Shown here in pieces: positions 3,325 to 46,272 of a DNA stretch of 64,000 nucleotides. Numbering within the stretch: the first letter of the stretch is position 1; each line of letters starts with the position of its first letter. The DNA lies in contig JAXGQE010000010.1 in assembly GCA_040766585.1 (NCBI GenBank), positions 63,117 to 127,116 on the forward strand. The letters run 5' to 3'. Source of the stretch: Candidatus Sumerlaeota bacterium. GTDB taxonomy: Bacteria; Bacillota; SLNR01. The notes under the pieces are model-generated. The model was not told the origin of the DNA. It did no database searches and saw only the letters and a program-made list of their open reading frames with translations. The translations under genes were made by a program, and so were the position numbers.

Positions 3325-3813
3325 ATGCTGGAAGGTATGATGGAGTGGATTCAGATTTTTAAAACAGAATTATCGATATTTCTCATGGCCGCGGTTCCTG
3401 TCATTGAACTGCGGGGAGCGATTCCAGCCGGGATCGCCCTGGGAATGTCTCCGTGGCATGCCGCCCTGGTCAGCTACCTGGGCAGCCTGGCGCCGGCACC
3501 CTTGATTCTTAAGTATGTGCGACCGGTCTTTGAGCGACTGCGGAAGACCAAATATCTGAGGGGATGGGCGGATCGCATGGAGGCTCGATCAGTCAAGCGA
3601 GGCAGTCACAATCTCCAGCGCTTCGGCGCTTGGGGTCTGATTCTGTTTGTGGCCATTCCCCTACCGGGAACCGGTGTCTGGACGGGAAGCATGATTGCCG
3701 GATTCCTGGATATTCGCTTTCGCTGGGCCATACCGGCCATTGCCCTGGGCAACCTTTTGGCTGCGCTGGCAGTCCTGATTCTCAGCGGCGGATTTGTGCG
3801 GGTGATTGGGTAG
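3325..3813 (+). CDS. small polytopic membrane protein, 'putative small multidrug export protein' family-like
   Basis: 162 aa, hydrophobic segments, motif VPVIELRGAIPAGIALG; RBS GCAGGAGAT upstream. Family recalled from memory, not searched. Confidence 0.55.
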   Translation: MLEGMMEWIQIFKTELSIFLMAAVPVIELRGAIPAGIALGMSPWHAALVSYLGSLAPAPLILKYVRPVFERLRKTKYLRGWADRMEARSVKRGSHNLQRFGAWGLILFVAIPLPGTGVWTGSMIAGFLDIRFRWAIPAIALGNLLAALAVLILSGGFVRVIG

Positions 3814-4026: not shown

Positions 4027-7000
4027 ATGAATAAATATTCCGATGAGTCGAATTGGGATCATTTGAATAGGGAACCGGAACAGAAACTGGTTCTTCCGGT
4101 CACAGAAGACGGTCTGATGCTGCGGGTCTCGCCGCAGGCGGCAGAGTGTCTGCATTTGAATGTGGCCCCGGGAGAGCTGTTTTCATTTTTTGATCTGTTG
4201 ACTCCTCAGGAGGCGGAAAAATGCCGCTGGCTGATGGATCAGGTGCGCCGGATCCGCCAGGCCGTGCGGACCGACTGCCGCCTGCAACTGGGCCATGGGT
4301 ATCAGCAGGTAAAAATGGTCATTGCCCCGGATGATGCCGGACTGGGGCTGGAACTTCGTCTCTTTTTGCCGGCCCAAACCATCCATGAGGCGGAAACGGA
4401 TGATGACTGCTGCGAGGCTGCGGCCATGCTGGAGTCGCAGCGGATGCTGGCAGATGCCGCCTTTGAAGGGCTGATGCTGGTTTGGGGAACCGAAACCTAC
4501 TGGACCATTACCAGCGCCAACCCGGCAGCCTGCCGATTGACCGGGTACACCGAAGAGGAACTGAGCCGGATGAATCCGGAATCTTTGGTATCGCCGGAAT
4601 ACCGGGGACGCATCCGGCAGATCCTGAAAAGAAAGCCTCTGGATCCAGAGCATTCCTGCGAACTGCAGCTGGTGACCCGCACCGGGGATCGTCTGTGGGT
4701 GGAAATCCGGGGAGCCGATTTAGAAACCCAGACGGGATCGTATCGAGTTTGTGCCTTCCGCGATATATCGGCTCTGGTGGAAAGTCGTGAAAAACTGCAG
4801 GTGAGGGAGAAAGAATTCCGGGCTTTGGCGGAGCATTCTCCGGACATCATTGTGAGATACGACCGGAATTACCAGAGAATATATGTCAATCCTGCGTTTG
4901 AACACCAATTCGGCCAATCGGCCGAGGAAGTTTTGGGTAAAAGCGTGAAGGAAACCGGGGTTCTTTCCCGGCAGACAGACCGATTCGTCGCGCTGCTGGA
5001 TGAGGTCTTTGCCAGCGGTGAGCCGCGGGAATGGGTCTTTGGGGCAGAGCCGGGTGAGCCGGTGCAGGGATATTTCCATACCCGCCTGGTACCGGAAACG
5101 GATGCCGATGGGCAGATTGGATCGATACTTGGCGTGTCTCGTGAGATTACTGAACAAAAAAACACGGAAAAGGCTCTTCGGGAACAAAAAGAACAGTATC
5201 ATCGATTTATGGACAATTTCCACGGAATTGCTTTTATGGGAGACGGAGGGTTTAAACCCCTGTTCATATCCGGTGCGGTGGAAGCCATAACCGGTTACTC
5301 GGATGAAGATTTGCTGTCGGGGCGGCTGACCTGGGAAGATCTGATCCATCCGGATGATTTTCCGGATCTGCTAGAAGCCATTGCCAACGACCGATTGGAT
5401 CAGAACATGCATACCCACCGCTACCGGATGATCCGCAAAGACGGGAAAGTCCGCTGGGTGGAACAGCACATTCGATATTTTCCCGGGCAGGACGGTGATT
5501 CCATGCGAACCCACGGCACCTTGTACGACATTACCGAACGGGTGACCATGGAAAATGCCCTGGAAGTCAGTGAAGCCCGCTACCGGATGCTTCTGGAGAA
5601 CATTTCGGATGTGGTGTATGTTCTGGATAAGCAAGGAAGGATCATCTACATCAGTCCATCGGTGGAAGGGCTCTGCGGCTATGCACCGGATGAGATGGTG
5701 GGGACATTGGTTTTGGATTGGATCTGGCCGGATGATCGAGAAATGGCCCGAAAGAATATGGAACGCAAATTCAACAGGGATATGGTCACCAGCGAACACC
5801 GGATTCGCACCAAAGACGGCGGGTACCGCTATATCCGGGCCTCCAGCCAGCCGCTGCGGGATGAGAACCTCTACGGTCCGGGCCTTTTTGGAATCATGTC
5901 CGATATTCATCTGGAGCGGCAGGCTGCTGAAGAACTGAAAGCCAGCGAAACCCGCTTTCGGACCATTATCAACAATATTCCGGGACTCTTTTACCGGGTG
6001 GACCTGGCATCCCGCACCATTACCTACGCATCCGACAGCAGCGAATCTCTGCTGGGCCTGGAGGCGAAAGATCTGGTGGGAAGGTCATTGGATGAATTTT
6101 CCAATGAACTGGTGCATCCGTCGTTCCATGGTGCTTTGACGGATGTTTTCCAAAAAGCGGTGGAGTCTGTGGGTCCGTACGAAATCGATTGCCGGCTGCA
6201 GCCGCAGAAGGGCCGACCCCTGTGGGTCAATATCCAGGGACAGGCATATCGGGAAGACGGAGTTCCTCTCTACATGGACAGCATCATGAGCGACATTACC
6301 CACCATAAGATGCTGGAAGAAGAACTGCGGAGCCGGGAAGAAGAGTTTCGCTCTTTGGCGGACAATGTCCCGGGAGCGGTCTACAAAATGGATCCGCAGA
6401 CCAATGAATTTGTGTATCTCAGCGACGAATTTGAAACCATTACCGGCTATGCTCCCCCGTTGTTTCTGGGGGATAACCGCCGTACCTATGAAGAAATTAT
6501 TTACGAAAAGGATCGGGAAAAGACGATCGCCAGTTATGATCAGGCCATATCGGAGGAACGGGTATTCAGCAGTGAGTACCGGATTGTTCGGGCGGATGGT
6601 TCACTGCGCTGGGTTCAGGGCCGGGCACAGGGCCGTTTTCAAGATGGCCAATTGCAGTGGGTAGTGGGAATTATCACCGATATCCAAGAACGCAAAGAAG
6701 CAGAAGCCCAGGTGGAATATCTTACGTTCCATGACCGGATGACGGGACTGTACAACCGGAACTTCTTCGATGTGGAACTGAAACGTCTGGATGTGGAGCG
6801 GATGCTGCCCTTAAGCATCATTATTGGAGATGTCAACGGCCTGAAGCTGGTGAATGACTCTCTGGGCCATCACAATGGAGATGAAATGCTGATTCTGGTG
6901 GCCCGTACCATCGCCGACGCCTGCCGGCAGGAAGATATCCTCTGCCGTTGGGGTGGAGACGAATTTGCCATTTTACTGCCGGAGACCTGGCTGCGGGATG

Positions 7001-36360: not shown

Positions 36361-36489
36361 CTGTAAGGGAAAATTTTACAGCAGAAGGAAAGCGGAGATA
36401 AAATCGCGAATCTTTACAGGAAAGGTTTTTAATAAACCGGCTGCTGATACAGCTGCATGCCGGACATTATACACAAGGAGCGTGACAGT

Positions 36490-37242
36490 ATGAAACCGTT
36501 AATTGGGATTACTGGGAATGTAATGTTTTCTATGGACCTGGGGATCGATCCCCGTATGGCACATATAGTGCCTGAGTTTAATTCGTCACCGCGGGATTAT
36601 ACCGAAGCAGTCAAGGCTGCCGGTGGGATTCCGGTGGTTATTCCGCTGTGCACTGATGAGGATCTGTTGAAAGAAACTCTGGATAAGCTGGATGGAGTCC
36701 TGTTGACCGGTGGAGAAGATGTAGATCCGCTTAATTATGGTGAGGATTACAATCATCGAATTGAACTGGTCAGCCCGATTCGGGACAAATTTGATATGAC
36801 CGTGGCCAGGCTGGCAATGGATCGAGATATGCCGATTCTCGGGATCTGCCGCGGATGCCAGATTATCAATGTCACGGAAGGTGGGACATTGTATCAGGAT
36901 ATCAGTTCGCAGGTGAAAGACTCACTGCGTCATCCTTTGGTAGGTATTACCCCCAAATGGCACAAATCCCATCTGGTTACCCTGGATCCCGAATCCAAAC
37001 TGGCAGGCATCTACGGGACCCGTGAAATGTGGACCAACGGTTTCCATCATCAGGCAGTCAAAGATGTGGCAGAGACCATGAAAGCCGTGGGGCATACCAA
37101 AGACGGCATGGTGGAAGCCATTGAAAGCAAAAAGCATACGTTCGTTGTCGGTGTTCAATGGCATCCGGAAATGATGCTGGAAAAACACCAGGATGTACTG
37201 CCTTTGTTTGAATCATTCGTGAAAGCGGCTCAAAGCAAATAG
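36490..37242 (+). CDS. class I glutamine amidotransferase-like / peptidase C26 hydrolase (gamma-glutamyl-GABA hydrolase PuuD-like)
   Basis: ORF 36457-37242, start at ATG 36490 behind AAGGAG; catalytic-Cys region ILGICRGCQ and HPE near the C-terminus. Confidence 0.82.
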   Translation: MKPLIGITGNVMFSMDLGIDPRMAHIVPEFNSSPRDYTEAVKAAGGIPVVIPLCTDEDLLKETLDKLDGVLLTGGEDVDPLNYGEDYNHRIELVSPIRDKFDMTVARLAMDRDMPILGICRGCQIINVTEGGTLYQDISSQVKDSLRHPLVGITPKWHKSHLVTLDPESKLAGIYGTREMWTNGFHHQAVKDVAETMKAVGHTKDGMVEAIESKKHTFVVGVQWHPEMMLEKHQDVLPLFESFVKAAQSK

Positions 37243-37264
37243 CAAATAAACGGGAGGTATGTTC

Positions 37265-38599
37265 ATGAGTAAAGGTGGAATCGAGATTAAGACTTCAATT
37301 CCGGGACCCCGATCCACATCTTTGCAGGAACGACGGCAAAAAGTAGTCCCTCGCGGCGCAGCCAGTGCAACCCCTTTGGTAGTTGAAAAAGGACGAGGCG
37401 CCCTTCTGGAAGATGTGGATGGAAACAAGTATCTGGATTTTGCCGGTGGTATCGGTGTGCTGAATGTAGGCTACAGTCATCCGAAGGTAGTGGCCGCGGT
37501 GAAAGACCAGGCGGAAAAGATGTTCCATACCTGTTCGGCTGTTAGCATGTACGAACCGTATATCGATCTGGCTGAAAAACTCACAGCACTGATCCCCGGG
37601 GATTATCCCAAGAAAACGGTTTTCCTCAACAGCGGAGCAGAAGCTGTAGAGAATGCTGTGAAGATTGCCCGCAGCTATAGCAAACGGCCTGCCATCGTTG
37701 TATTCGAAAATGCATTCCACGGACGGACTTTGCTGACCATGTCCATGACAGCAAAGATTGTACCATACAAAGCCAACTTCGGACCTTTTGCTCCTGAAAT
37801 ATATCGTCTGCCTTACCCATATTGCTATCGCTGCCCGTTCGGACTGGAATACGGCAGCTGTGGCATGCGCTGTCTGGAATATATTGAAGAAAGTTTTACC
37901 ACCCATATTGCTCCCGAAGATGTGGCAGCCCTGGTTATCGAAACGGTAGTTGGAGAAGGCGGCTTCCTGGTACCACCTAAAGAATTCCTGCCCGGACTGC
38001 GCAAAATCTGTGAAAAGTACAACATCCTCTTTGTCGCAGACGAGATCCAGTGCGGATACGGACGAACCGGCAAGATGTTTGCCTTTGAACATTATGGAAT
38101 CGTACCGGACCTGGTTACCGTGGCCAAATCCCTGGCAGCCGGACTGCCACTCAGTGCCGTGGTAGGAAAGGCCGATGTGATGGATACAACAGTGATCGGC
38201 GGGCTGGGAGGCACATACAGCGGGAATCCGGTGGCCTTGGCGGCAGGGAATGCGGTCCTGGATGTCATGGAGGAAGAAAAACTGCTGGAAAAAGCCAAAG
38301 TGTTGGGCGATCTGATGATGAAACGATTCAAAGAGATGCAGGAGCGCTATCCGGTTATCGGCGATGTTCGCGGACTGGGAGCCATGGTGGCCATCGAGTT
38401 GGTGGAAGATCGGGAAAGTAAAAAGCCGGCTGCGGATGCAACCAAAAAAATCATGAAATACTGTTACGAACACGGCTTAATCCTGGTAAAAGCTGGGATG
38501 TTTGATAATGTTGTCAGGATGCTTCCTCCTCTGGTAACCACTCCGGAGCAGATGGAGATCGGTCTCGATCTGATTGAAGAAGCACTGAAAACTCTGTAA
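37265..38599 (+). CDS. gabT: 4-aminobutyrate (omega-amino acid) aminotransferase, class III
   Basis: Strong resemblance to E. coli GabT as I recall it (LDFAGGIGVLNVGYSHPKVVAAV, GAEAVENAVKIAR, GDVRGLGAMVAIEL); start at ATG 37265 (7 nt after GGGAGG). Confidence 0.88.
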   Translation: MSKGGIEIKTSIPGPRSTSLQERRQKVVPRGAASATPLVVEKGRGALLEDVDGNKYLDFAGGIGVLNVGYSHPKVVAAVKDQAEKMFHTCSAVSMYEPYIDLAEKLTALIPGDYPKKTVFLNSGAEAVENAVKIARSYSKRPAIVVFENAFHGRTLLTMSMTAKIVPYKANFGPFAPEIYRLPYPYCYRCPFGLEYGSCGMRCLEYIEESFTTHIAPEDVAALVIETVVGEGGFLVPPKEFLPGLRKICEKYNILFVADEIQCGYGRTGKMFAFEHYGIVPDLVTVAKSLAAGLPLSAVVGKADVMDTTVIGGLGGTYSGNPVALAAGNAVLDVMEEEKLLEKAKVLGDLMMKRFKEMQERYPVIGDVRGLGAMVAIELVEDRESKKPAADATKKIMKYCYEHGLILVKAGMFDNVVRMLPPLVTTPEQMEIGLDLIEEALKTL

Positions 38600-38671
38600 T
38601 ACAAAGGACTGCATAAAGACAGATAGGGACGCAGGTCCCTATCTGTTTGACTCTGAAGGCGGGGTGATTGC

Positions 38672-40513
38672 ATGATGAAAGGATACATGGGAAAAATTCT
38701 CCATGTGGATTTGACCACTGAAACAATCCATACAGATTTTTATGATGAAGCCCACTTACGCAAATACATCGGCGGCAGCGGGCTGGGGGCCCGTATTCTC
38801 TATGACGAAACGGATGAATCCACCGATCCGCTGGGGCCTGATAATGTGCTGATCTTTATGACCGGTCCTCTCGTCGGGACAAAAATTCCTATGACCGGAC
38901 GGCATGCCGTGGTGGCAAAATCACCATTGACAGGCATTTGGGGTGAATCCGATTCGGGGGGGCACTGGGGATACATGCTCAAACGAGCTGGATTCGACGG
39001 CATAGTGTTTCGAGGTGCAGCGTCGAAACCGGTATATTTGTGGATTCACGAAGGAGAAGTGGAAATTCGCCCAGCCGATTCGATTTGGGGGCAGGACTCA
39101 TTTGTCACCGAAGAGATGATTCAAAAAGAAACCCATTCAAAAGCCGCCGTTGCCTGCATTGGCCCGGCTGGTGAGAATCTGGTCCGCATGGCTGCCATTA
39201 TGAATGACGGGAAAGACAGTCGTGCGGCAGGACGCTGCGGATTGGGCGCTGTCATGGGTTCCAAAATGCTTAAAGCAGTGGCTGTGTTTGGCGCAGAAGA
39301 GACACCGGTGGCAGACCCAGAAAAACTGGCTCAGATGGGGCGTACCATCGCCAAGCAAATAGCGGAGCGGACAAAAAGCTTCAGTGCTTTCGGAACATCC
39401 GGTGGACTGCAGACGGCAGAAAAAGTGGGCGATTTACCCATTCAGAACTGGCGAACCGGAACCTGGGAAAGCGGTGCTGCGAAAATATCAGGCCAAGCTA
39501 TGGCCGATTCCATATTGACCGGTAAATTTTTCTGTCAGGGTTGTGTAATTGGATGCGGACGAGTGGTTAAGCAGTATTATCAACCGTTTGCCGGCCTTGC
39601 CGGTGGCGGACCGGAATATGAAACGTTGGGTATGATTGGCAGCAACGCGCTGGTGGACGACCTGGAGACCATTGCTCGGGCCAATGAGTTGTGCAACCGC
39701 TACGGTGTTGATACTATTTCATGCGGTTCTGCAGCTGCCTTTGCTATAGAATGCTTCGAGCGCGGGTTAATCACCAAAGATGATACGAATGGCCTGGAAT
39801 TGGCCTGGGGTGATGGGAAAACACTGTTGGCACTCATTGAGATGATTGTTAAAAAGGAAGGGATCGGCGAGATTCTCAGTCAGGGAACTCGACGGGCAGC
39901 CGAAGCAATCGGAGGCATAGCATCCGAATTTGCGATTCATGTCAAAGGACTGGAACTTCCGGCTCATGACCCACGCGCCTACATCAGTCTGGGTGTAGGG
40001 TATGCAACCTCCAATCGGGGGGCATGCCATCTGCAGGGCTACAGCTATGCATTCGAACGAGGATTAACCTCCCCGGATATGGGATTTCCTGAGGTTTTGG
40101 ATCGTTTCTCTATGGACCGGAAAGGAGAACTGGCCGCAAAAACCCAGAATCTGATGAGCATGTTTGATTCCCTGAAAGTATGCAAGTTTATCCTCAGCGG
40201 GGGCGTGGATGTGCATAATCTGGTGGAATGGCTCAATGCTTCCACCGGCTGGGATATGACCGATGAGGAGTTTATGCGGACCGGAGAACGTTTATATAAT
40301 CTGAAACGAATGTACAATGTCCGCTGCGGGATCAGTCGAAAAGACGATGTCTTGCCCATGCGTATTCTGACGCAGCCCCGACGGGAAGGCGGTGCCGGAT
40401 ACAATCTGCCGCCTCTGGGGCCGATGCTGCACGAATACTATGCAATACGGGGTTGGTCCGATGAAGGGATTCCCCGTCCAGAAAAACTCAGCGAGCTGGA
40501 ATTACACATCTAA
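38672..40513 (+). CDS. aldehyde:ferredoxin oxidoreductase (tungsten/molybdopterin AOR family)
   Basis: 613 aa; N-terminal AOR domain (KILHVDLTT...YIGGSGLGARIL) and AOR-family length and architecture. Confidence 0.9.
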   Translation: MMKGYMGKILHVDLTTETIHTDFYDEAHLRKYIGGSGLGARILYDETDESTDPLGPDNVLIFMTGPLVGTKIPMTGRHAVVAKSPLTGIWGESDSGGHWGYMLKRAGFDGIVFRGAASKPVYLWIHEGEVEIRPADSIWGQDSFVTEEMIQKETHSKAAVACIGPAGENLVRMAAIMNDGKDSRAAGRCGLGAVMGSKMLKAVAVFGAEETPVADPEKLAQMGRTIAKQIAERTKSFSAFGTSGGLQTAEKVGDLPIQNWRTGTWESGAAKISGQAMADSILTGKFFCQGCVIGCGRVVKQYYQPFAGLAGGGPEYETLGMIGSNALVDDLETIARANELCNRYGVDTISCGSAAAFAIECFERGLITKDDTNGLELAWGDGKTLLALIEMIVKKEGIGEILSQGTRRAAEAIGGIASEFAIHVKGLELPAHDPRAYISLGVGYATSNRGACHLQGYSYAFERGLTSPDMGFPEVLDRFSMDRKGELAAKTQNLMSMFDSLKVCKFILSGGVDVHNLVEWLNASTGWDMTDEEFMRTGERLYNLKRMYNVRCGISRKDDVLPMRILTQPRREGGAGYNLPPLGPMLHEYYAIRGWSDEGIPRPEKLSELELHI

Positions 40514-40527
40514 CAGGGAGTGAGTAT

Positions 40528-42045
40528 ATGTCATTGGAACGGATCCGTCATGCAGGGCTGCGGGAGAAGGTTGTCTCTGCGAAAGATGCTGCTGCTTTGA
40601 TTCAGGATGGCATGAATATTGCCATCAGTGGATTTGCTCTTGCCGGAAATCCCAAGGAAGTACTGCCGGCCATGGTCAAAGAGATACAGAACAGCGGAAT
40701 CAGAAAAAAAATCAATCTGTGGACAGGTGCTTCCACGGGTTTTGAGGTAGACGGCCTGCTGGCTGAAAACGATGTTGTGATGAGACGATTCCCGTATCAG
40801 AGCAGCAAAGAAATGCGGCAGAGGATCAATCAGGGGGATGTTCAATATACAGATATGCATTTGAGCATGTCGCCCCAGTCTGTCCGGTATGGCTGGTGGG
40901 GTCATCTGGATTTGGCCATAATTGAGGCGGCTGCCATTACAGAAGAAGGGGAAATCGTTCTGACGACTGCGGTGGGAAACAGCCCGACTTTTGTGGAAGT
41001 TGCGGATCGGGTAATCATTGAAATCAATGAAACATTTCCGGAGAACCTGGAGGGAATTCACGACATTTTCCAGATAGCTGATCCTCCCGAAAGGATGTCG
41101 ATTCCGCTAACCCATCCAGATCAGCGTATCGGTTCACCGTTCCTTCATGTGCCTTTGGAAAAAGTGAAGGCCATTGTGTTTTCCAATGTACCGGAGAAGG
41201 GGCCTGTGTTTTCACCGGTGGAGGATGTTCACCAGAAGATTGCAGGGCATCTTATCGACTTTTTGGAGGGAGAGGTGGCCATCGGGCGAATGCCGCCTAA
41301 CCTGCTCCCTCTGCAGTCCGGTGTTGGCAATGTCGCCAATGCAGTACTGGCTGGTCTGGCCGATTCCAAGTTCAGTCATCTGCGTGTCTATTCTGAAGTG
41401 CTGCAGGATTCGATACTGACTCTTTTGGAAAGCGGTAAACTGGATTTTGCCTCCGGGTGTGCCATTAACCTGTCCCGAGATGCCATGCAAAAACTGTATT
41501 CCAATCTGGACTGGTACAAAGGAAAATTGATGCTCAGGCCTCTGGAAATCAGCAACCATCCGGAAGTGATCCGCCGCCTGGGGTTAATATCCATGAACAC
41601 GGCATTGGAAGCGGATATTTACGGCAATGTCAATTCAACTCATGTTCTGGGCAGCAAAATCATGAATGGTATTGGCGGTTCCGGTGACTTCACTCGAAAT
41701 GCCTTCCTATCATTTTTCTTTACTGAATCGATTGCAAAGCAAGGTAGTGTTTCATCCATTGTGCCGTATGTATCGCATACTGACCATACAGAACACGATG
41801 TAGATGTGATTATTACGGAACAGGGAGCGGCTGATTTGCGGGGATTATCTCCCCGGGAAAGAGCGCTGCGGATTATTCATCAATGTGCTCATCCGGATTA
41901 CCGTGATGCGCTGCAGGACTATTTTGATCGGGCCTGCCGCATGTCAGGAGGGCAAACACCGCATATTCTGGATCAGTGTTTCTCCTGGCACACCCGTTTC
42001 CAGAAAACGGGCAGCATGAAAGAGAATGAGAGTGATGCATTATGA
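40528..42045 (+). CDS. acetyl-CoA hydrolase/transferase-family CoA-transferase (succinate or 4-hydroxybutyrate CoA-transferase-like)
   Basis: 505 aa with family-typical N- and C-terminal domains (GNPKEVL..., GIGGSGDF); RBS CAGGGAG 7 nt upstream. Confidence 0.88.
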   Translation: MSLERIRHAGLREKVVSAKDAAALIQDGMNIAISGFALAGNPKEVLPAMVKEIQNSGIRKKINLWTGASTGFEVDGLLAENDVVMRRFPYQSSKEMRQRINQGDVQYTDMHLSMSPQSVRYGWWGHLDLAIIEAAAITEEGEIVLTTAVGNSPTFVEVADRVIIEINETFPENLEGIHDIFQIADPPERMSIPLTHPDQRIGSPFLHVPLEKVKAIVFSNVPEKGPVFSPVEDVHQKIAGHLIDFLEGEVAIGRMPPNLLPLQSGVGNVANAVLAGLADSKFSHLRVYSEVLQDSILTLLESGKLDFASGCAINLSRDAMQKLYSNLDWYKGKLMLRPLEISNHPEVIRRLGLISMNTALEADIYGNVNSTHVLGSKIMNGIGGSGDFTRNAFLSFFFTESIAKQGSVSSIVPYVSHTDHTEHDVDVIITEQGAADLRGLSPRERALRIIHQCAHPDYRDALQDYFDRACRMSGGQTPHILDQCFSWHTRFQKTGSMKENESDAL

Positions 42046-43271
42046 TCCGTCATCTTGAAAAAGGAGTGGGATTCCGCCAAAGTATCGCCGGGATCCCTTC
42101 CAGGATTCATGCGGATAATGTCAGTGCCGGCATTGTTGCCGGCATTTTCAATATTGGCACTCTGCTTTTAATCACAAAAATTCTTCAGGATGCTGGGCTG
42201 CCCCAACCGGTTATTCTGTCCTGGATTCTGGTCGTATTCACGGGCGGGGGTTTCCTATCTCTGATCATGTCGCTGTATTACCAAAAGCCCATTGCCGGCG
42301 CATGGAGCATTGCTGGGCTGGTTCTGGTCAGCGGCTCCCTGCCGTATTATTCTCTGCCCCAGCTTACGGGTGGTTTTTTTATGGCGGGTGCAATTGTTGC
42401 CTTGTTGGGTTTTACCGGCGTCATCAGCCGCATCGTCCGATGGCTGCCACGGCCGGTCATGATGGCCATGATTGCAGGAATTTTGCTGCGCTTTGGGGTG
42501 GGCATTATTGTGGCTCTGGAACAGGATCCGCTTTTAGCCGGAATTCCCCTTATTCTTTTTATGGTCTCCCAGCGGCTTTTCCCCCGATTTCCAGCGGTAC
42601 TGTCTGCTCTGGTGGGCGGTGGCCTGATGGTTTTTTTCAGCCACACCATCACCTGGAGCCCGATTGTACTGGGAGTGGCACGGCCGGTTTTTGTGGTCCC
42701 GGAATTTACTCTTCCTGCATTGGTGGGAATCAGTTTGCCATTGGCTCTGACCATCATCGGGGCTGAAAATATGCAGGCTATGGGTATTCTGATGGCGGAA
42801 GGGTACGATCAGCATCCTCCGGGGACTACGGTACCGATGAATGCCATGACAGCAGCCTCCGGGCTGGGCATCATGATTGTTTCTTTCTTTGCCGGCCACA
42901 GCCTTACCATGGCCGGGGTGCTGACGGCAATTTGCAGTGGTGAAAGTGCTGGAGAAGATCGTGATGGACGGTATATAGCCGCTCTGGTTGCTGGGCTTAT
43001 TACCATGATGTTTGGGATTTTGGGGGCTACGCTGGTTCATGTACTGGAATCCATGCCAGAGTCTTTGATTAATGCTGTCGCAGGCCTGGCCATGGCGGGA
43101 GCGTTGATTGCTTCATTCCGCAGTGCATTTTCAGGCCGATTTAGTTACGGGGCCTTTTTTGCATTTGTCACTGCTGTATCCGGAATTCGTGTTCTCGGTA
43201 TCGGGGCTCCATTTTGGGCGCTTCTTCTGGGACTTGCGGCTGCAGCGATGCTGGATGGGAAGGATTGGTAA
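42042..43271 (+). CDS. BenE-family (benzoate/organic-acid:H+ symporter-like) membrane transporter
   Basis: 409 aa polytopic membrane protein; start overlaps the CoA-transferase stop (ATGA), indicating translational coupling. Confidence 0.78.
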   Translation: MIRHLEKGVGFRQSIAGIPSRIHADNVSAGIVAGIFNIGTLLLITKILQDAGLPQPVILSWILVVFTGGGFLSLIMSLYYQKPIAGAWSIAGLVLVSGSLPYYSLPQLTGGFFMAGAIVALLGFTGVISRIVRWLPRPVMMAMIAGILLRFGVGIIVALEQDPLLAGIPLILFMVSQRLFPRFPAVLSALVGGGLMVFFSHTITWSPIVLGVARPVFVVPEFTLPALVGISLPLALTIIGAENMQAMGILMAEGYDQHPPGTTVPMNAMTAASGLGIMIVSFFAGHSLTMAGVLTAICSGESAGEDRDGRYIAALVAGLITMMFGILGATLVHVLESMPESLINAVAGLAMAGALIASFRSAFSGRFSYGAFFAFVTAVSGIRVLGIGAPFWALLLGLAAAAMLDGKDW

Positions 43272-43391
43272 TATCCGAAAAATTACTTACATTTAATCAT
43301 TGCGATGAATAAATGTTCGGGTAATTTTTCTTTTTAAGGGGAGAAATCAGAAAAAATGCTCGTTTAGTTTGTGTTTATTATCACTAAAGCC

Positions 43392-43420
43392 CTTGACAAC
43401 TTGCAGTGACAATGCTACTA
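43392..43420 (+). promoter_or_regulatory. sigma-A-type promoter of glnA (leader about 300 nt)
   Basis: TTGACA (43392-43397), 17-nt spacer, TACTAT (43415-43420). Confidence 0.6.
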
Positions 43421-43724
43421 TAACGACATTATAGATTGCATCCGAACCAGTTGGATGTGGTGGACGGATACAGAAGGAGGTGGAAGATGGGTAAGGGAAG
43501 AGATCCGATCGGGAACACGGCATGGAGTCTTCTCGGTTGTCAAAGCGCCAGAACTTGACTTCGGTCAAGTTGACGAGGGAGAGGTTAATCGAATCTTCGG
43601 CGGGTGCCTCTCGGTGCAGTCACCATCGTAGAAATGCTACAAATCCCGGAAGTGATTTCGGTGACAAAAGGCATTGCAGTGACAATTGTAGTTTGATATA
43701 TGAATATTGGGGGAGGAATCGTTT

Positions 43725-45071
43725 ATGTCGGCTTCTTTTAGGCCTGACTATACAAAGGAAGACGTCCTGGCTAAGGCAAAGGAAGAGGGCGTTGAATTCG
43801 TTCGGCTTCAGTTTTCTGATATCCTTGGCATCGCAAAGAATGTAGCCATTCCGGTTAGAGAACTGGGACATGCACTGGACGGCAAGGTTATGTTTGACGG
43901 CTCATCCATTTCCGGATTTGTCCGGATTGAGGAATCAGATATGTACCTGCGTCCAGATCCAGGTAGTTTCGAAGTGTATCCCTGGACACGGGGAGAGGGA
44001 ACCAGTGCTCGACTGATCTGCGATGTGTATAACCCGGATGGGACTCCGTTTGCCGGATGCCCTCGCGGTATTTTGAAACGGGTTATGCAGGAAGCAAAAG
44101 ATCTTGGATACACTTTCTACACAGGCACGGAGGCGGAATTTTTCCTCTTCCCAAAAGATGGGAATGGTCATATAATTGCGACCACTCATGACAATGGAGG
44201 GTATTTTGATTTTCCACCCACGGATTTGGGTGAAAATGCCCGACGGGACATGATCGTAGCCCTGGAAAAGATGGGATTTGAAGTGGAAGCTTCTCATCAC
44301 GAGACTGCCCATGGCCAGCATGAGATTGATTTTCGCTATGCGGATGCGCTCCTGACTTCAGATAATGTACTAACCTTTAAACTGGTGGTCAAGACCATCG
44401 CTATGCAGCATGGACTGCATGCTACATTTATGCCGAAACCGGTTTGCGGTATCAACGGTTCAGGTATGCATACTCACCAGTCGCTGTACAAAAACGGCAG
44501 GAACGCTTTCGAAGACCCGAGCAAACCCCACGGATTGAGTGACGAGGCAATGCATTACATGGGAGGATTGCTCAAGCATGCCCGTAGTTTTGCAGCCATT
44601 ACCAATCCATTGGTCAATTCGTACAAACGATTGGTTCCGGGGTATGAAGCACCGGTGTACATCGCCTGGTCTGAACGGAACCGGAGTCCGCTGATTCGGA
44701 TTCCCGCGATGCGGGGTGCCGGGACGCGTATTGAACTGCGTTTTCCGGATCCCACATGCAATCCATATCTGGCGATGGCTGTTATGCTGAAGTCAGGTCT
44801 GGATGGGATTAAAAATAAGATTGATCCCGGAGAACCAACCAATATCAATATCTATAAGATGACTGAAGAGGAAAAGGATTCAATGGGCATTATCAGTTTG
44901 CCAGGCAGCCTGGAAGAGGCGCTGGATGAATTGGAAGCCAGTGAACTGATGCGGGAGGCTCTGGGAGATCATACTTATGAACACTTCCTGGCGGCAAAAC
45001 GCAGAGAATGGGATTCGTACCGCATTCAGGTTCATCAGTGGGAAATTGATAAGTATATGAGCACATTTTAA
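43725..45071 (+). CDS. glnA: glutamine synthetase, type I (Bacillus-like)
   Basis: ORF 43707-45071, start at ATG 43725 behind GGGGGAGG; near-identical blocks to B. subtilis GlnA as I recall it ([20 protein letters not shown], KPxxGxNGSGMH, [13 protein letters not shown]). Confidence 0.93.
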
Positions 45072-45078
45072 TAAGTAC

Positions 45079-45107
45079 AGGCTGCATTTCGGTGCAGCCT
45101 TTTTTTT
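45079..45107 (+). terminator. intrinsic terminator after glnA
   Basis: Perfect 8-bp stem AGGCTGCA/TGCAGCCT with TTTCGG loop followed by T7. Confidence 0.85.
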
Positions 45108-45324
45108 GTGTACACGATTCAGTTTAGAACATGGGTAGGACTTCGTATGGAGTTGAAGTTTGTTCTTTGCTTTAATCAAAAGAGGAAATTGCAGTTTGAA
45201 GGAAATATACAATATTTAGATAATCTAATCAATATTGAATCGACCTGTTCAGGTAGGCAGCTTCAAAAGAGATCGTATGAACCATTTCTGATTTTGTTTT
45301 CTGCAGATTGAAAGGGGAATGGGT

Positions 45325-46272
45325 ATGGGCGTATCGTACCGAAATATGAATGATGATGATCTGCGGCAAGTGCAAAAGCTGATTCCCATCGTGTTTGCCG
45401 ATCTTTTTACCAAAGAGACCGGACGGCCTCATTATCTTCCGCAGCGAACAAAAGAAGAAATGACCAGCTACCTGGAGAAGGACCCGGATGGGGCTTTTGT
45501 AGCCGTTACGGAAAGAAAAAAAATCATTGGCTGTGTTTTCTGCCACCGGTGGGGTGATACTGGCTGGCTGGGACCACTGGTTGTGTTGTCATCCTATCAG
45601 GGCAGAGGAATTGGAAGCAGCCTCTTGAAGTTGGCAACGGAGCATCTGGTAAAAGCACAGTGCAAAGTAATCGGACTGGAGACTATGCCGCAGACAACGG
45701 CCAATGTGGGCTTGTATCTGAGGCACGGATACTTTCCTGAAAATCTTCGAATCCGATTGGGGAAGGAGATTGGGTTTGAACCGGAATCCATCGATGATCG
45801 CTTGATTGACTGCCTGGACAGGAGCGATGTGATTCCTTTCCTTCCGGAAGCAGCCCGGATCAGCCGCTCTGTAGATCCGTGCATTGATTATGCCCGGGAG
45901 ATCGAGGCAACATACCGGTTCAACCTGGGGCGCTGTTTATTCTGGAAAAACCAAAGCCGAATTTCTGGGTTCATGCTGGTGCACTGGATTCCAGCCAGTA
46001 CCCGGGTCATGGTGAAGGCTATGGTTGGGGATCCTGAACAGAATGCTCTGGAACATTTTCACGATTTCTTGTCCGCCTGCGAACAGGTACTGGCGCAAGA
46101 AGGTATGAGGCAGCTGATTGTGCCGGTCTATGGAGGCCATCATCGTGTACTGGAGATCCTGACTCACTCCGGCTATCGCGTGCAGCATGTCGGTGTCCGT
46201 ATGCTTTACCGTAAAGATAAGTCGCCTGTAAGTGTTGAAAACCTGGTTCATCTGGCTCAGTGGTCCGGTTAG
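45325..46272 (+). CDS. GNAT-family N-acetyltransferase (two-domain)
   Basis: GNAT acetyl-CoA-binding motif QGRGIGSSLL; start at ATG 45325 (second of two ATGs after AAAGGGGAA). Confidence 0.7.
   Translation: MGVSYRNMNDDDLRQVQKLIPIVFADLFTKETGRPHYLPQRTKEEMTSYLEKDPDGAFVAVTERKKIIGCVFCHRWGDTGWLGPLVVLSSYQGRGIGSSLLKLATEHLVKAQCKVIGLETMPQTTANVGLYLRHGYFPENLRIRLGKEIGFEPESIDDRLIDCLDRSDVIPFLPEAARISRSVDPCIDYAREIEATYRFNLGRCLFWKNQSRISGFMLVHWIPASTRVMVKAMVGDPEQNALEHFHDFLSACEQVLAQEGMRQLIVPVYGGHHRVLEILTHSGYRVQHVGVRMLYRKDKSPVSVENLVHLAQWSG

Follow-up and report, generated by a model that had tools for sequence, protein, structure and literature searches.

A glmS ribozyme in the leader of the glutamine synthetase gene glnA of an uncultured bacterium

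Introduction

How is glutamine synthetase controlled in a bacterium whose glnA gene has no glnR beside it and stands behind an unusually long leader? The question is raised by a 64,000-nucleotide (nt) stretch of contig JAXGQE010000010.1 (positions 63,117 to 127,116, forward strand) assigned to a Candidatus Sumerlaeota bacterium. This whole stretch is called the window hereafter, and coordinates refer to it unless another sequence is named. The closest named relatives of its GlnA protein, from Neomoorella and Calderihabitans, are about 68% identical, and the host belongs to an uncultured Bacillota-like lineage known from metagenome-assembled genomes and metagenome contigs. An original prediction, made from the letters of the DNA, had noted ahead of glnA a promoter, a 23-codon upstream open reading frame (uORF) behind a strong Shine-Dalgarno (SD) sequence, hairpins and a 13-nt repeat, and had proposed a leader-peptide or RNA-based control of glnA different from the Bacillus glnRA paradigm.

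GlmS makes glucosamine-6-phosphate (GlcN6P) from glutamine and fructose-6-phosphate. In the glmS ribozyme, GlcN6P triggers cleavage near the 5' end of the mRNA, and the product, which carries a 5'-hydroxyl (5'-OH), is degraded by RNase J1 (PMC3997798). Reviews present the class as a regulator of glmS (PMC5473149; PMC11477304). No paper describing an association of the glmS ribozyme with glnA was found in the accessible literature; dedicated surveys of its distribution lie beyond that reach.

In this study, we show that the core of the glnA leader is, by its structure, a complete member of the glmS ribozyme family. From comparative sequence evidence, we assign a probability of roughly 80% to the reading that glnA has its own promoter and a monocistronic mRNA, whose functional glmS ribozyme leader lowers glutamine synthetase at high GlcN6P. 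Glutamine synthesis would then probably be shut down by an amino-sugar signal instead of by a GlnR repressor.

A complete glmS ribozyme precedes glnA

The original prediction had not matched the leader to any known RNA class. A scan with Rfam returns a single match in the whole window, a full-length glmS ribozyme that ends 37 nt before the glnA start codon on the same strand (Table 1); these 37 nt hold no other open reading frame and no terminator. Down to E<=1, the scan of the leader gives neither a T-box nor any riboswitch other than glmS. That the leader could not be matched earlier to a T-box, a clean GlnR box or an obvious terminator-type attenuator is thus borne out, as there is also no GlnR box with one mismatch or fewer and no terminator within the leader.

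The Rfam alignment puts the predicted cleavage site, A/GCGCC (the slash marks the cut), between A43544 and G43545, inside the uORF. Helix P1 is formed by 43552-43559 and 43564-43571 around a UUCG loop. The predicted hairpin CTTGAC-TTCG-GTCAAG does exist, at 43554-43569, and so does the second copy of the repeat; they are not the separate motifs for which they were taken, the hairpin being part of P1 and the repeat copy being made of parts of P4 and of the P3.1 pseudoknot. In P3.1, the loop GUCAC (43619-43623) pairs with GUGAC (43679-43683). The core segments A/GCGCC, GACGAGG, AUCGA and UCGGCGG.UG are all present and invariant across the aligned ribozymes.

Base pairing was counted in six ribozymes, namely those of the window, of three related loci (L081, L083 and L086) and of two Atribacterota. 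Over helices P1, P2, P2a, P3, P4 and P4.1 together with P3.1, 94.6% of the cells are paired and 13 pairs carry compensatory changes on both sides. When the partners were slid by 1-3 columns as a control, pairing fell to 32-50%. P3.1 taken alone is paired in 90% of its cells, with one compensatory change from U-A to C-G. The strands of the core pseudoknots P2.1 and P2.2 are invariant and were not counted separately in this tally. One hallmark of the family differs, a feature of context and not of structure: the gene downstream is glnA and not glmS, and the window holds no glmS gene.

Table 1. Features of the glnA locus (window coordinates)
Feature	Position	Strand	Remarks
Sigma-70-type promoter	43393..43421	+	TTGACA 43393-43398, 17-nt spacer, TG-extended TACTAT 43416-43421
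Repeat copy 1, TTGCAGTGACAAT	43401..43413	+	Inside promoter spacer; in L081, L083 and L086 neither repeated nor conserved
Predicted 5'-proximal hairpin of leader	43435..43461	+	Minimum free energy fold of the 117-nt 5' fragment
uORF Shine-Dalgarno, AAGGAGGTGG	43474..43483	+	GGAGG 6 nt from ATG; candidate ribosome-binding 5' stabiliser
uORF, 23 codons, MGKGRDPIGNTAWSLLGCQSART	43487..43558	+	Spans cleavage site; UGA stop in P1 5' strand
glmS ribozyme (RF00234), full length	43533..43687	+	Rfam 102.8 bits (gathering score 37); all 167 model positions (1-167) covered
P3 loop GUCAC, 5' strand of P3.1 pseudoknot	43619..43623	+	Rfam mapping, pair counts
Repeat copy 2, TTGCAGTGACAAT	43674..43686	+	Last 4 nt of P4 3' strand (UUGC), A, P3.1 strand GUGAC 43679-43683, AAU
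glnA Shine-Dalgarno core GGAGG	43712..43716	+	ATG 8 nt downstream; ribozyme end 25 nt upstream; spacer kept in relatives
glnA	43725..45071	+	ATG 43725; TIGR00653; structure matches
Intrinsic terminator	45079..45107	+	9-bp stem then T run, directly 3' of glnA

The product of glnA has 448 amino acids and is a glutamine synthetase of type I (Bacillus-type; TIGR00653, 592 bits, above the cutoff of 429), which matches solved structures of glutamine synthetases, 4lnf and 4s0r among them, with 625 bits; the window holds one copy only. Its promoter, TTGACA-17-TACTAT, had been found earlier and only its start needed moving by one base, from 43392 to 43393. It agrees with the consensus at 10 of 12 positions and is the top promoter-like site within 43200-45400. 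From its position, the transcript is estimated to start near 43428, which would give a leader of about 297 nt. No terminator-like site was found on the forward strand between 43200 and 45078, and since a terminator follows directly after glnA, the unit is taken to be monocistronic.

The ribozyme is conserved in syntenic relatives

A protein search yielded four clusters of GlnA with at least 78% identity, the window's own included, and the next drop is to 70%. Four syntenic relatives share the design, with GlnA proteins 78 to about 90% identical. The contigs (L081-L087, L177) carry genes for a gamma-aminobutyric acid (GABA) aminotransferase, an aldehyde:ferredoxin oxidoreductase, a CoA-transferase and BenE, then a long intergenic region and glnA; BenE is absent in L086. 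In every syntenic relative, the region before glnA contains a glmS ribozyme of full length, which Rfam scores at 104.8, 101.3 and 106.3 bits in L081, L083 and L086. The ribozyme of L177 reaches 156.5 bits with a purpose-built model, and its helices P4 and P4.1 carry additional compensatory changes.

An alignment of four loci (window, L081, L083 and L086) has 61% invariant columns in the ribozyme and 48% in the promoter, as compared to 8-13% in the remainder of the leader and in the intergenic DNA that precedes it. The promoter is kept as TTGACA-N17-TAnnAT in L081, L083, L086 and L177. Invariant columns, compensatory changes and the unchanged core together indicate that the ribozyme is selected and structurally intact, and no relic.

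The unusual downstream gene could suggest that the glmS fold has here acquired another ligand, an amine-containing metabolite closer to nitrogen status, and a few variable positions are indeed off the Rfam consensus (e.g. GACGAGG-G and CGG-G-UG). However, these positions also vary among the aligned ribozymes: the nucleotide after GACGAGG is the consensus A in L086 and in the Atribacterota, and U in Bacillus thuringiensis. The bit scores lie in the usual range of canonical members, and a change of ligand is very unlikely because the conserved core of the active site and cofactor pocket matches that of canonical ribozymes.

Distribution of the arrangement and absence of the GlnR context

A covariance model built from the six ribozymes was used to search 167 genomic and metagenomic GlnA loci, 1.48 Mb of sequence in total. 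Outside this clade, it detected the ribozyme at two Atribacterota loci only, and Rfam, run on the 14 closest genome loci, agrees with this distribution. It was the protein search that supplied the close relatives; scans of genomes and metagenomes for GlnA gave nothing above 67% identity among the matches listed. A weak match of the model downstream of a soda-lake GlnA locus (L088, 8088-8239, reverse strand; 17.5 bits, E 0.067) was discarded, as Rfam at its gathering threshold did not confirm it.

In the Atribacterota, glmM is followed by the ribozyme, glmS (TIGR01135, 824 bits), a gap of 95 nt and glnA. No terminator was detected in this gap, and the order gives an independent hint of a functional coupling between glmS and glnA, although glnA may have its own promoter there. 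Deletion of glmS from such an operon would produce the layout of the window, so that the ribozyme might be an evolutionary leftover, or else a constitutive processing site, without any regulation of glnA; the phylogenetic narrowness of the arrangement would fit such an origin. This explanation is nevertheless improbable. The ribozyme is the best-conserved non-coding segment of the locus, and compensatory changes keep its helices while the core stays unchanged, which is not the pattern of a decaying relic. Moreover, a working ribozyme at this position must affect the glnA mRNA whatever its origin.

The next-closest GlnA proteins (69-70% identity), used as outgroups (L168-L171), are encoded in the order hflX, ynbB-like, glnR (MerR family) and glnA. 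In L168 and L169 the MerR-family gene lies directly upstream of glnA or close to it. L168 shows one perfect TGTNA-N7-TNACA box and one box with a single mismatch upstream of glnR, and Rfam finds no ribozyme at the outgroup glnR-glnA loci. Leaders of the ribozyme type hold no GlnR/TnrA site with fewer than 2 mismatches and none that is conserved. A tblastn search with outgroup GlnR detects no glnR anywhere in the window, and the gene preceding the glnA leader is that of a BenE-family transporter; the lack of a glnR upstream of glnA and the BenE-type gene had been predicted. The simplest reading of these comparisons is that in this clade glnA was relocated beside benE and the dcw cell-division cluster, with GlnR control being replaced by the ribozyme.

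The uORF is conserved as a ribosome-loading site and not as a peptide

The uORF, its strong SD and the 6-nt spacing are present as predicted. Taking the 3' tail of the 16S rRNA from general knowledge of Bacillota, we calculate a pairing energy of -17.3 kcal/mol for the uORF SD, which is matched in 4 of 1000 dinucleotide shuffles. Over the window, L081, L083 and L086 the values lie between -14.0 and -17.3 kcal/mol, with 2-4 matching shuffles per 1000 in each. The SD of glnA is weaker than that of the uORF (-11.2 kcal/mol in the window, -10.7 to -12.1 across the leaders). GG(A/G)GG-N6-ATG is kept with fixed 6-nt spacing in all five lineages, and in the four-way alignment the island from SD to ATG has 56% invariant columns versus 8-11% in the flanking leader.

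None of this holds for the encoded peptide. The five products, MGKGRDPIGNTAWSLLGCQSART, MIKGRAPHRNTAGSLLGCQSART, MIKGREPHRKKAGSLLGCQSART, MKSDETM (L083) and MENQAGRKKRQNLPAAVS, share no codon bias; the uORFs are 23, 23, 23, 7 and 18 codons long and occupy two frames relative to the cleavage site. Their stop codons in the relatives fall at -6 to +31 relative to this site, and the stop is followed by C in the four cases examined. A ribosome terminating on any of these uORFs would cover A/GCGCC. Comparative alignment, which had been proposed as a check of the uORF and the repeats, thus finds SD and start codon retained, and peptide, length, frame and 13-nt repeat not. As peptide, length and frame are unconserved and the uORFs have no regulatory codon in common, what is selected is ribosome loading and not the peptide.

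The same data bear on leader-peptide attenuation, in which translation of the 23-codon uORF would sense an amino acid such as glutamine as the primary control, and the RNA structures would be attenuator hairpins. The very strong and conserved SD-ATG and the overlap of the uORF with structured RNA speak for it, as do a glutamine codon just before the cleavage site in the window, L081 and L177, and two glutamine and two asparagine codons in L086. Against this, MKSDETM of L083 is encoded with neither a glutamine nor an asparagine codon, the uORFs of window and L081 differ outside the ribozyme by five codons with amino-acid changes and two synonymous ones, and the leader holds no terminator or antiterminator, its structures being fully explained as helices of the ribozyme. 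We regard attenuation by a leader peptide as highly unlikely; of the two mechanisms originally proposed, RNA-based control unlike that of Bacillus glnRA is supported and the leader-peptide attenuator is not.

By analogy with known mRNA stabilisers, the SD-ATG of the uORF most likely serves to load ribosomes near the 5' end and thereby to stabilise uncleaved mRNA. A hairpin near the 5' end, of different sequence from that of the window, is also predicted in L081 and L083; the 5' fragment of L086 folds more extensively. Since the uORF runs over the cleavage site, its translation may in addition delay cleavage or block it transiently.

For comparison, we analysed seven canonical glmS leaders, from Anoxybacillus, Listeria, Lysinibacillus, B. 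thuringiensis, Acetoanaerobium and two Atribacterota, so that 12 leaders in all (five of the glnA type) underlie the comparison of SD sequences. In five of the seven, a GGAGG-type SD-like element lies 20-47 nt upstream of the cleavage site (approximate positions: L172, 2431-2442; L173, 2411-2422; L175, 2118-2129; L003, 3498-3509; L009, 3672-3683). A strong element of this kind was not seen in the glmS leaders of B. thuringiensis (L174) and Acetoanaerobium (L176). No start codon was seen after the element in the canonical leaders, four of which were scanned explicitly and three read from the sequence. The SD-like element of canonical glmS leaders may be a general ribosome-binding stabiliser that is detached by cleavage, a role that we did not find described in the accessible literature.

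Two further observations were made on these canonical leaders. Those of the Atribacterota carry tandem units of about 10 nt (GACTGGTAGA, ACCGGAAGAC) directly 5' of the SD-like element and the ribozyme (L009, about 3620-3690; L003, about 3455-3500). In the B. thuringiensis plasmid record L174, a coding sequence for a 61-amino-acid 'hypothetical protein' (2317-2502) lies between the ribozyme (2168-2322) and glmS, overlapping the former by a few bases, and it may reflect nothing more than an error in annotating the leader.

A model for the control of glnA by GlcN6P

We propose that GlcN6P, when it accumulates, would act as the cofactor of the ribozyme, and that the RNA would be cleaved at the predicted site. 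Cleavage would take a fragment of about 117 nt off the 5' end and leave a 5'-OH on the ribozyme-glnA RNA. This end would be the entry for a 5' exonuclease of the RNase J type, as is established for glmS of B. subtilis, and by this exonuclease glnA mRNA would be degraded, and synthesis of glutamine synthetase would fall. Because GlmS makes GlcN6P from glutamine, GlcN6P could be a proxy for glutamine sufficiency and report whether the supply of glutamine meets the cell-wall demand for amino sugars. The ribozyme would hold the place that the GlnR repressor has in the nearest relatives. The 5' fragment, with its hairpin and SD, would be a stabiliser cut off by the ribozyme, and in this clade an added ATG would turn it into a translated uORF. 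It is known in this regard that ribosomes initiating at a strong SD block RNase J1 on hbs mRNA (PMC5737220). From the known family and from the comparisons above, we infer that cleavage depends on GlcN6P and is followed by decay, and likewise what purpose the control would serve and what the uORF would do.

Several points weigh against this model. The case for cleavage, ligand dependence and decay of the glnA leader is computational throughout. The view is limited to 64 kb without glmS; the genes for GlmS and RNase J would lie outside, as would a second glnA or a glnR or tnrA unlinked to the locus. Placing the general supply of glutamine under an amino-sugar signal would be physiologically odd if this were the sole glutamine synthetase. 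The arrangement is rare: in a search of 5.8 billion proteins, it occurs in five lineages among the 120 best GlnA hits, and, apart from the Atribacterota, the ribozyme is found at none of 160 more distant GlnA loci. The role of the SD as a stabiliser is drawn by analogy, and two of seven canonical leaders are without a strong SD-like element. Instead of stabilising the mRNA, the GGAGG-like element could pair with the CCUCUC strand of P2, in competition with the 5' strand of P2.

A more elaborate form of the model joins replacement of GlnR by the ribozyme and the use of GlcN6P as a glutamine readout with a gating of the ribozyme by uORF translation: ribosomes over A/GCGCC, be they loading, elongating or terminating, would stabilise the uncleaved mRNA and physically prevent folding of the core. 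This combination is possible, though doubtful. If true, it would integrate the translation status and the amino-sugar pool on one RNA, and it would give the first natural glmS ribozyme with a target other than glmS and the first ribosome-gated ribozyme switch.

Relation to known regulatory systems

The canonical glmS ribozyme of Bacillota such as B. subtilis, Listeria and Anoxybacillus belongs to the same RNA family and has the same cleavage motif, helices, P3.1 and position in the 5' untranslated region; the GlcN6P cofactor and RNase J-dependent decay are presumably shared as well. Two things set the glnA leader apart from the known family, namely the gene under its control and the translated uORF. 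The canonical ribozyme targets glmS in a direct end-product feedback, whereas here the target is glnA, one metabolic step upstream, whose product glutamine is the substrate of GlmS. Leaders of the glnA type have a translated uORF with SD-ATG that crosses the cleavage site, whereas the canonical leaders analysed have at most the SD-like element.

In Bacillus, glnRA with GlnR/TnrA and feedback-inhibited glutamine synthetase involves an enzyme of the same type and likewise serves to lower glutamine synthetase synthesis when nitrogen or glutamine is sufficient. The means there is transcriptional repression, while here it would be self-cleavage of the mRNA, in a locus with neither an adjacent glnR nor TGTNA-N7-TNACA operators. 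The glutamine riboswitch of cyanobacteria (glnA RNA motif, RF01739), which controls the glutamine synthetase-inactivating factor IF17, is likewise a metabolite-sensing RNA governing glutamine synthetase. This riboswitch, described in work cited within PMC11477304, differs in having an unrelated fold, in sensing glutamine directly and in acting on translation of an inhibitor protein and not on the stability of glnA mRNA. The GlmY/GlmZ/RapZ system of Escherichia coli also senses GlcN6P and acts post-transcriptionally (PMC7073468), but it is based on a protein and small RNAs, targets glmS and shares no sequence or structure with the ribozyme.

For the 5' fragment, the nearest parallels are the STAB-SD of the cryIIIA leader and the leaders of aprE and hbs, where likewise a strong SD lies near the 5' end after a hairpin and the peptide is unimportant. 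These are known 5' mRNA stabilisers of Bacillus (STAB-SD and aprE among the references of PMC3997798; hbs in PMC5737220). The glnA leader differs from them in that its putative stabiliser would be detachable by a metabolite-triggered ribozyme.

A conserved natural glnA target would show that the glmS ribozyme class can be re-targeted by evolution, would link cell-wall amino-sugar pools to central nitrogen assimilation and would add a post-transcriptional alternative to the control of glnA by GlnR/TnrA in Gram-positive bacteria. The SD-ATG in the fragment that would be removed and the SD-like elements of canonical leaders suggest that cleavage may also detach a ribosome-binding stabiliser, besides creating a 5'-OH entry for RNase J. 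These aspects are of relevance for glmS ribozymes as drug targets and as switches in synthetic biology.

Promoter region, 13-nt repeat and neighbouring genes

Boxes of the form (A)TGTTCG or GTTCG lie 5' of the -35 element and are kept across the clade; in L081 and L083 each leader has two of them, spaced by about 42 nt (window 43311-43319 and 43362-43369; L081 5601 and 5643; L083 5605 and 5647; L086 5438 and 5467). The second box of the window reads ATGCTCG. Such boxes could bind a transcription factor, and they bear a loose likeness to half of a Cheo (LexA) box. The conservation of boxes and promoter would suit a mainly transcriptional control by a protein at the GTTCG boxes or the promoter, with the ribozyme left to fine-tune. 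We consider this extremely unlikely, as no known nitrogen-regulator motif fits and GlnR/TnrA boxes are lacking; transcriptional control is, besides, compatible with control by the ribozyme, and both could act together.

The sequence TTGCAGTGACAAT occurs exactly twice in the window, as predicted; its second copy had been placed correctly, and the first lies one base further on than the predicted 43400-43412. The repeat is absent from L081, L083 and L086 and was rejected as a regulatory motif, since the structure of the ribozyme accounts for copy 2, while copy 1 is located in the promoter spacer, which is not transcribed. Copy 1 is probably without function, and the repeat is probably lineage-specific and coincidental.

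A weak promoter-like site, GTGACA-18-AATATT (9 of 12 consensus positions, 43679-43708), overlaps the 3' end of the ribozyme. It was rejected as a promoter bypassing the ribozyme: a translatable mRNA is unlikely to result, as transcription would start in or after the SD of glnA. The sequence GAATAT just 5' of this SD is kept in four of five lineages. In L086, the most divergent relative, the spacer between ribozyme and glnA extends to about 160 nt, versus 37 nt in the window, and contains AGTC(A/G)AAAGTC(G/T) repeats (5843-5911), with a 28-nt unit and a 12-nt unit each present twice.

The operon upstream of the leader (36457-43271) is syntenic in all relatives and encodes a class I glutamine amidotransferase/Peptidase_C26-like protein, GABA aminotransferase (TIGR00700, 557 bits), aldehyde:ferredoxin oxidoreductase, succinyl-CoA:acetate CoA-transferase and BenE. 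The Peptidase_C26-like protein has a weak match to gamma-glutamyl-GABA hydrolase. Judged by these annotations, the operon looks like a catabolic route for GABA or gamma-glutamyl-amines that yields glutamate and adjoins glnA. The amidotransferase and aminotransferase genes hinted that glnA itself might encode a PuuA-like gamma-glutamyl-amine synthetase. This identity was rejected, since the GGputSyn score of 313 bits is below the cutoff of 650, whereas both the GlnA family cutoff and the match to glutamine synthetase structures favour GlnA.

Downstream of glnA, a split gene pair of the Lys_export (LysO-like) type precedes a gene for a GNAT protein of 300-317 amino acids in relatives (L081 7410-8296, L177 11432-12315, L086 12375-13264); the corresponding part of the window (45072-45318) is without this pair. 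L086 has an extra insertion of about 5 kb between glnA and the GNAT gene, which carries genes for MCP, ArsD, TetR and others.

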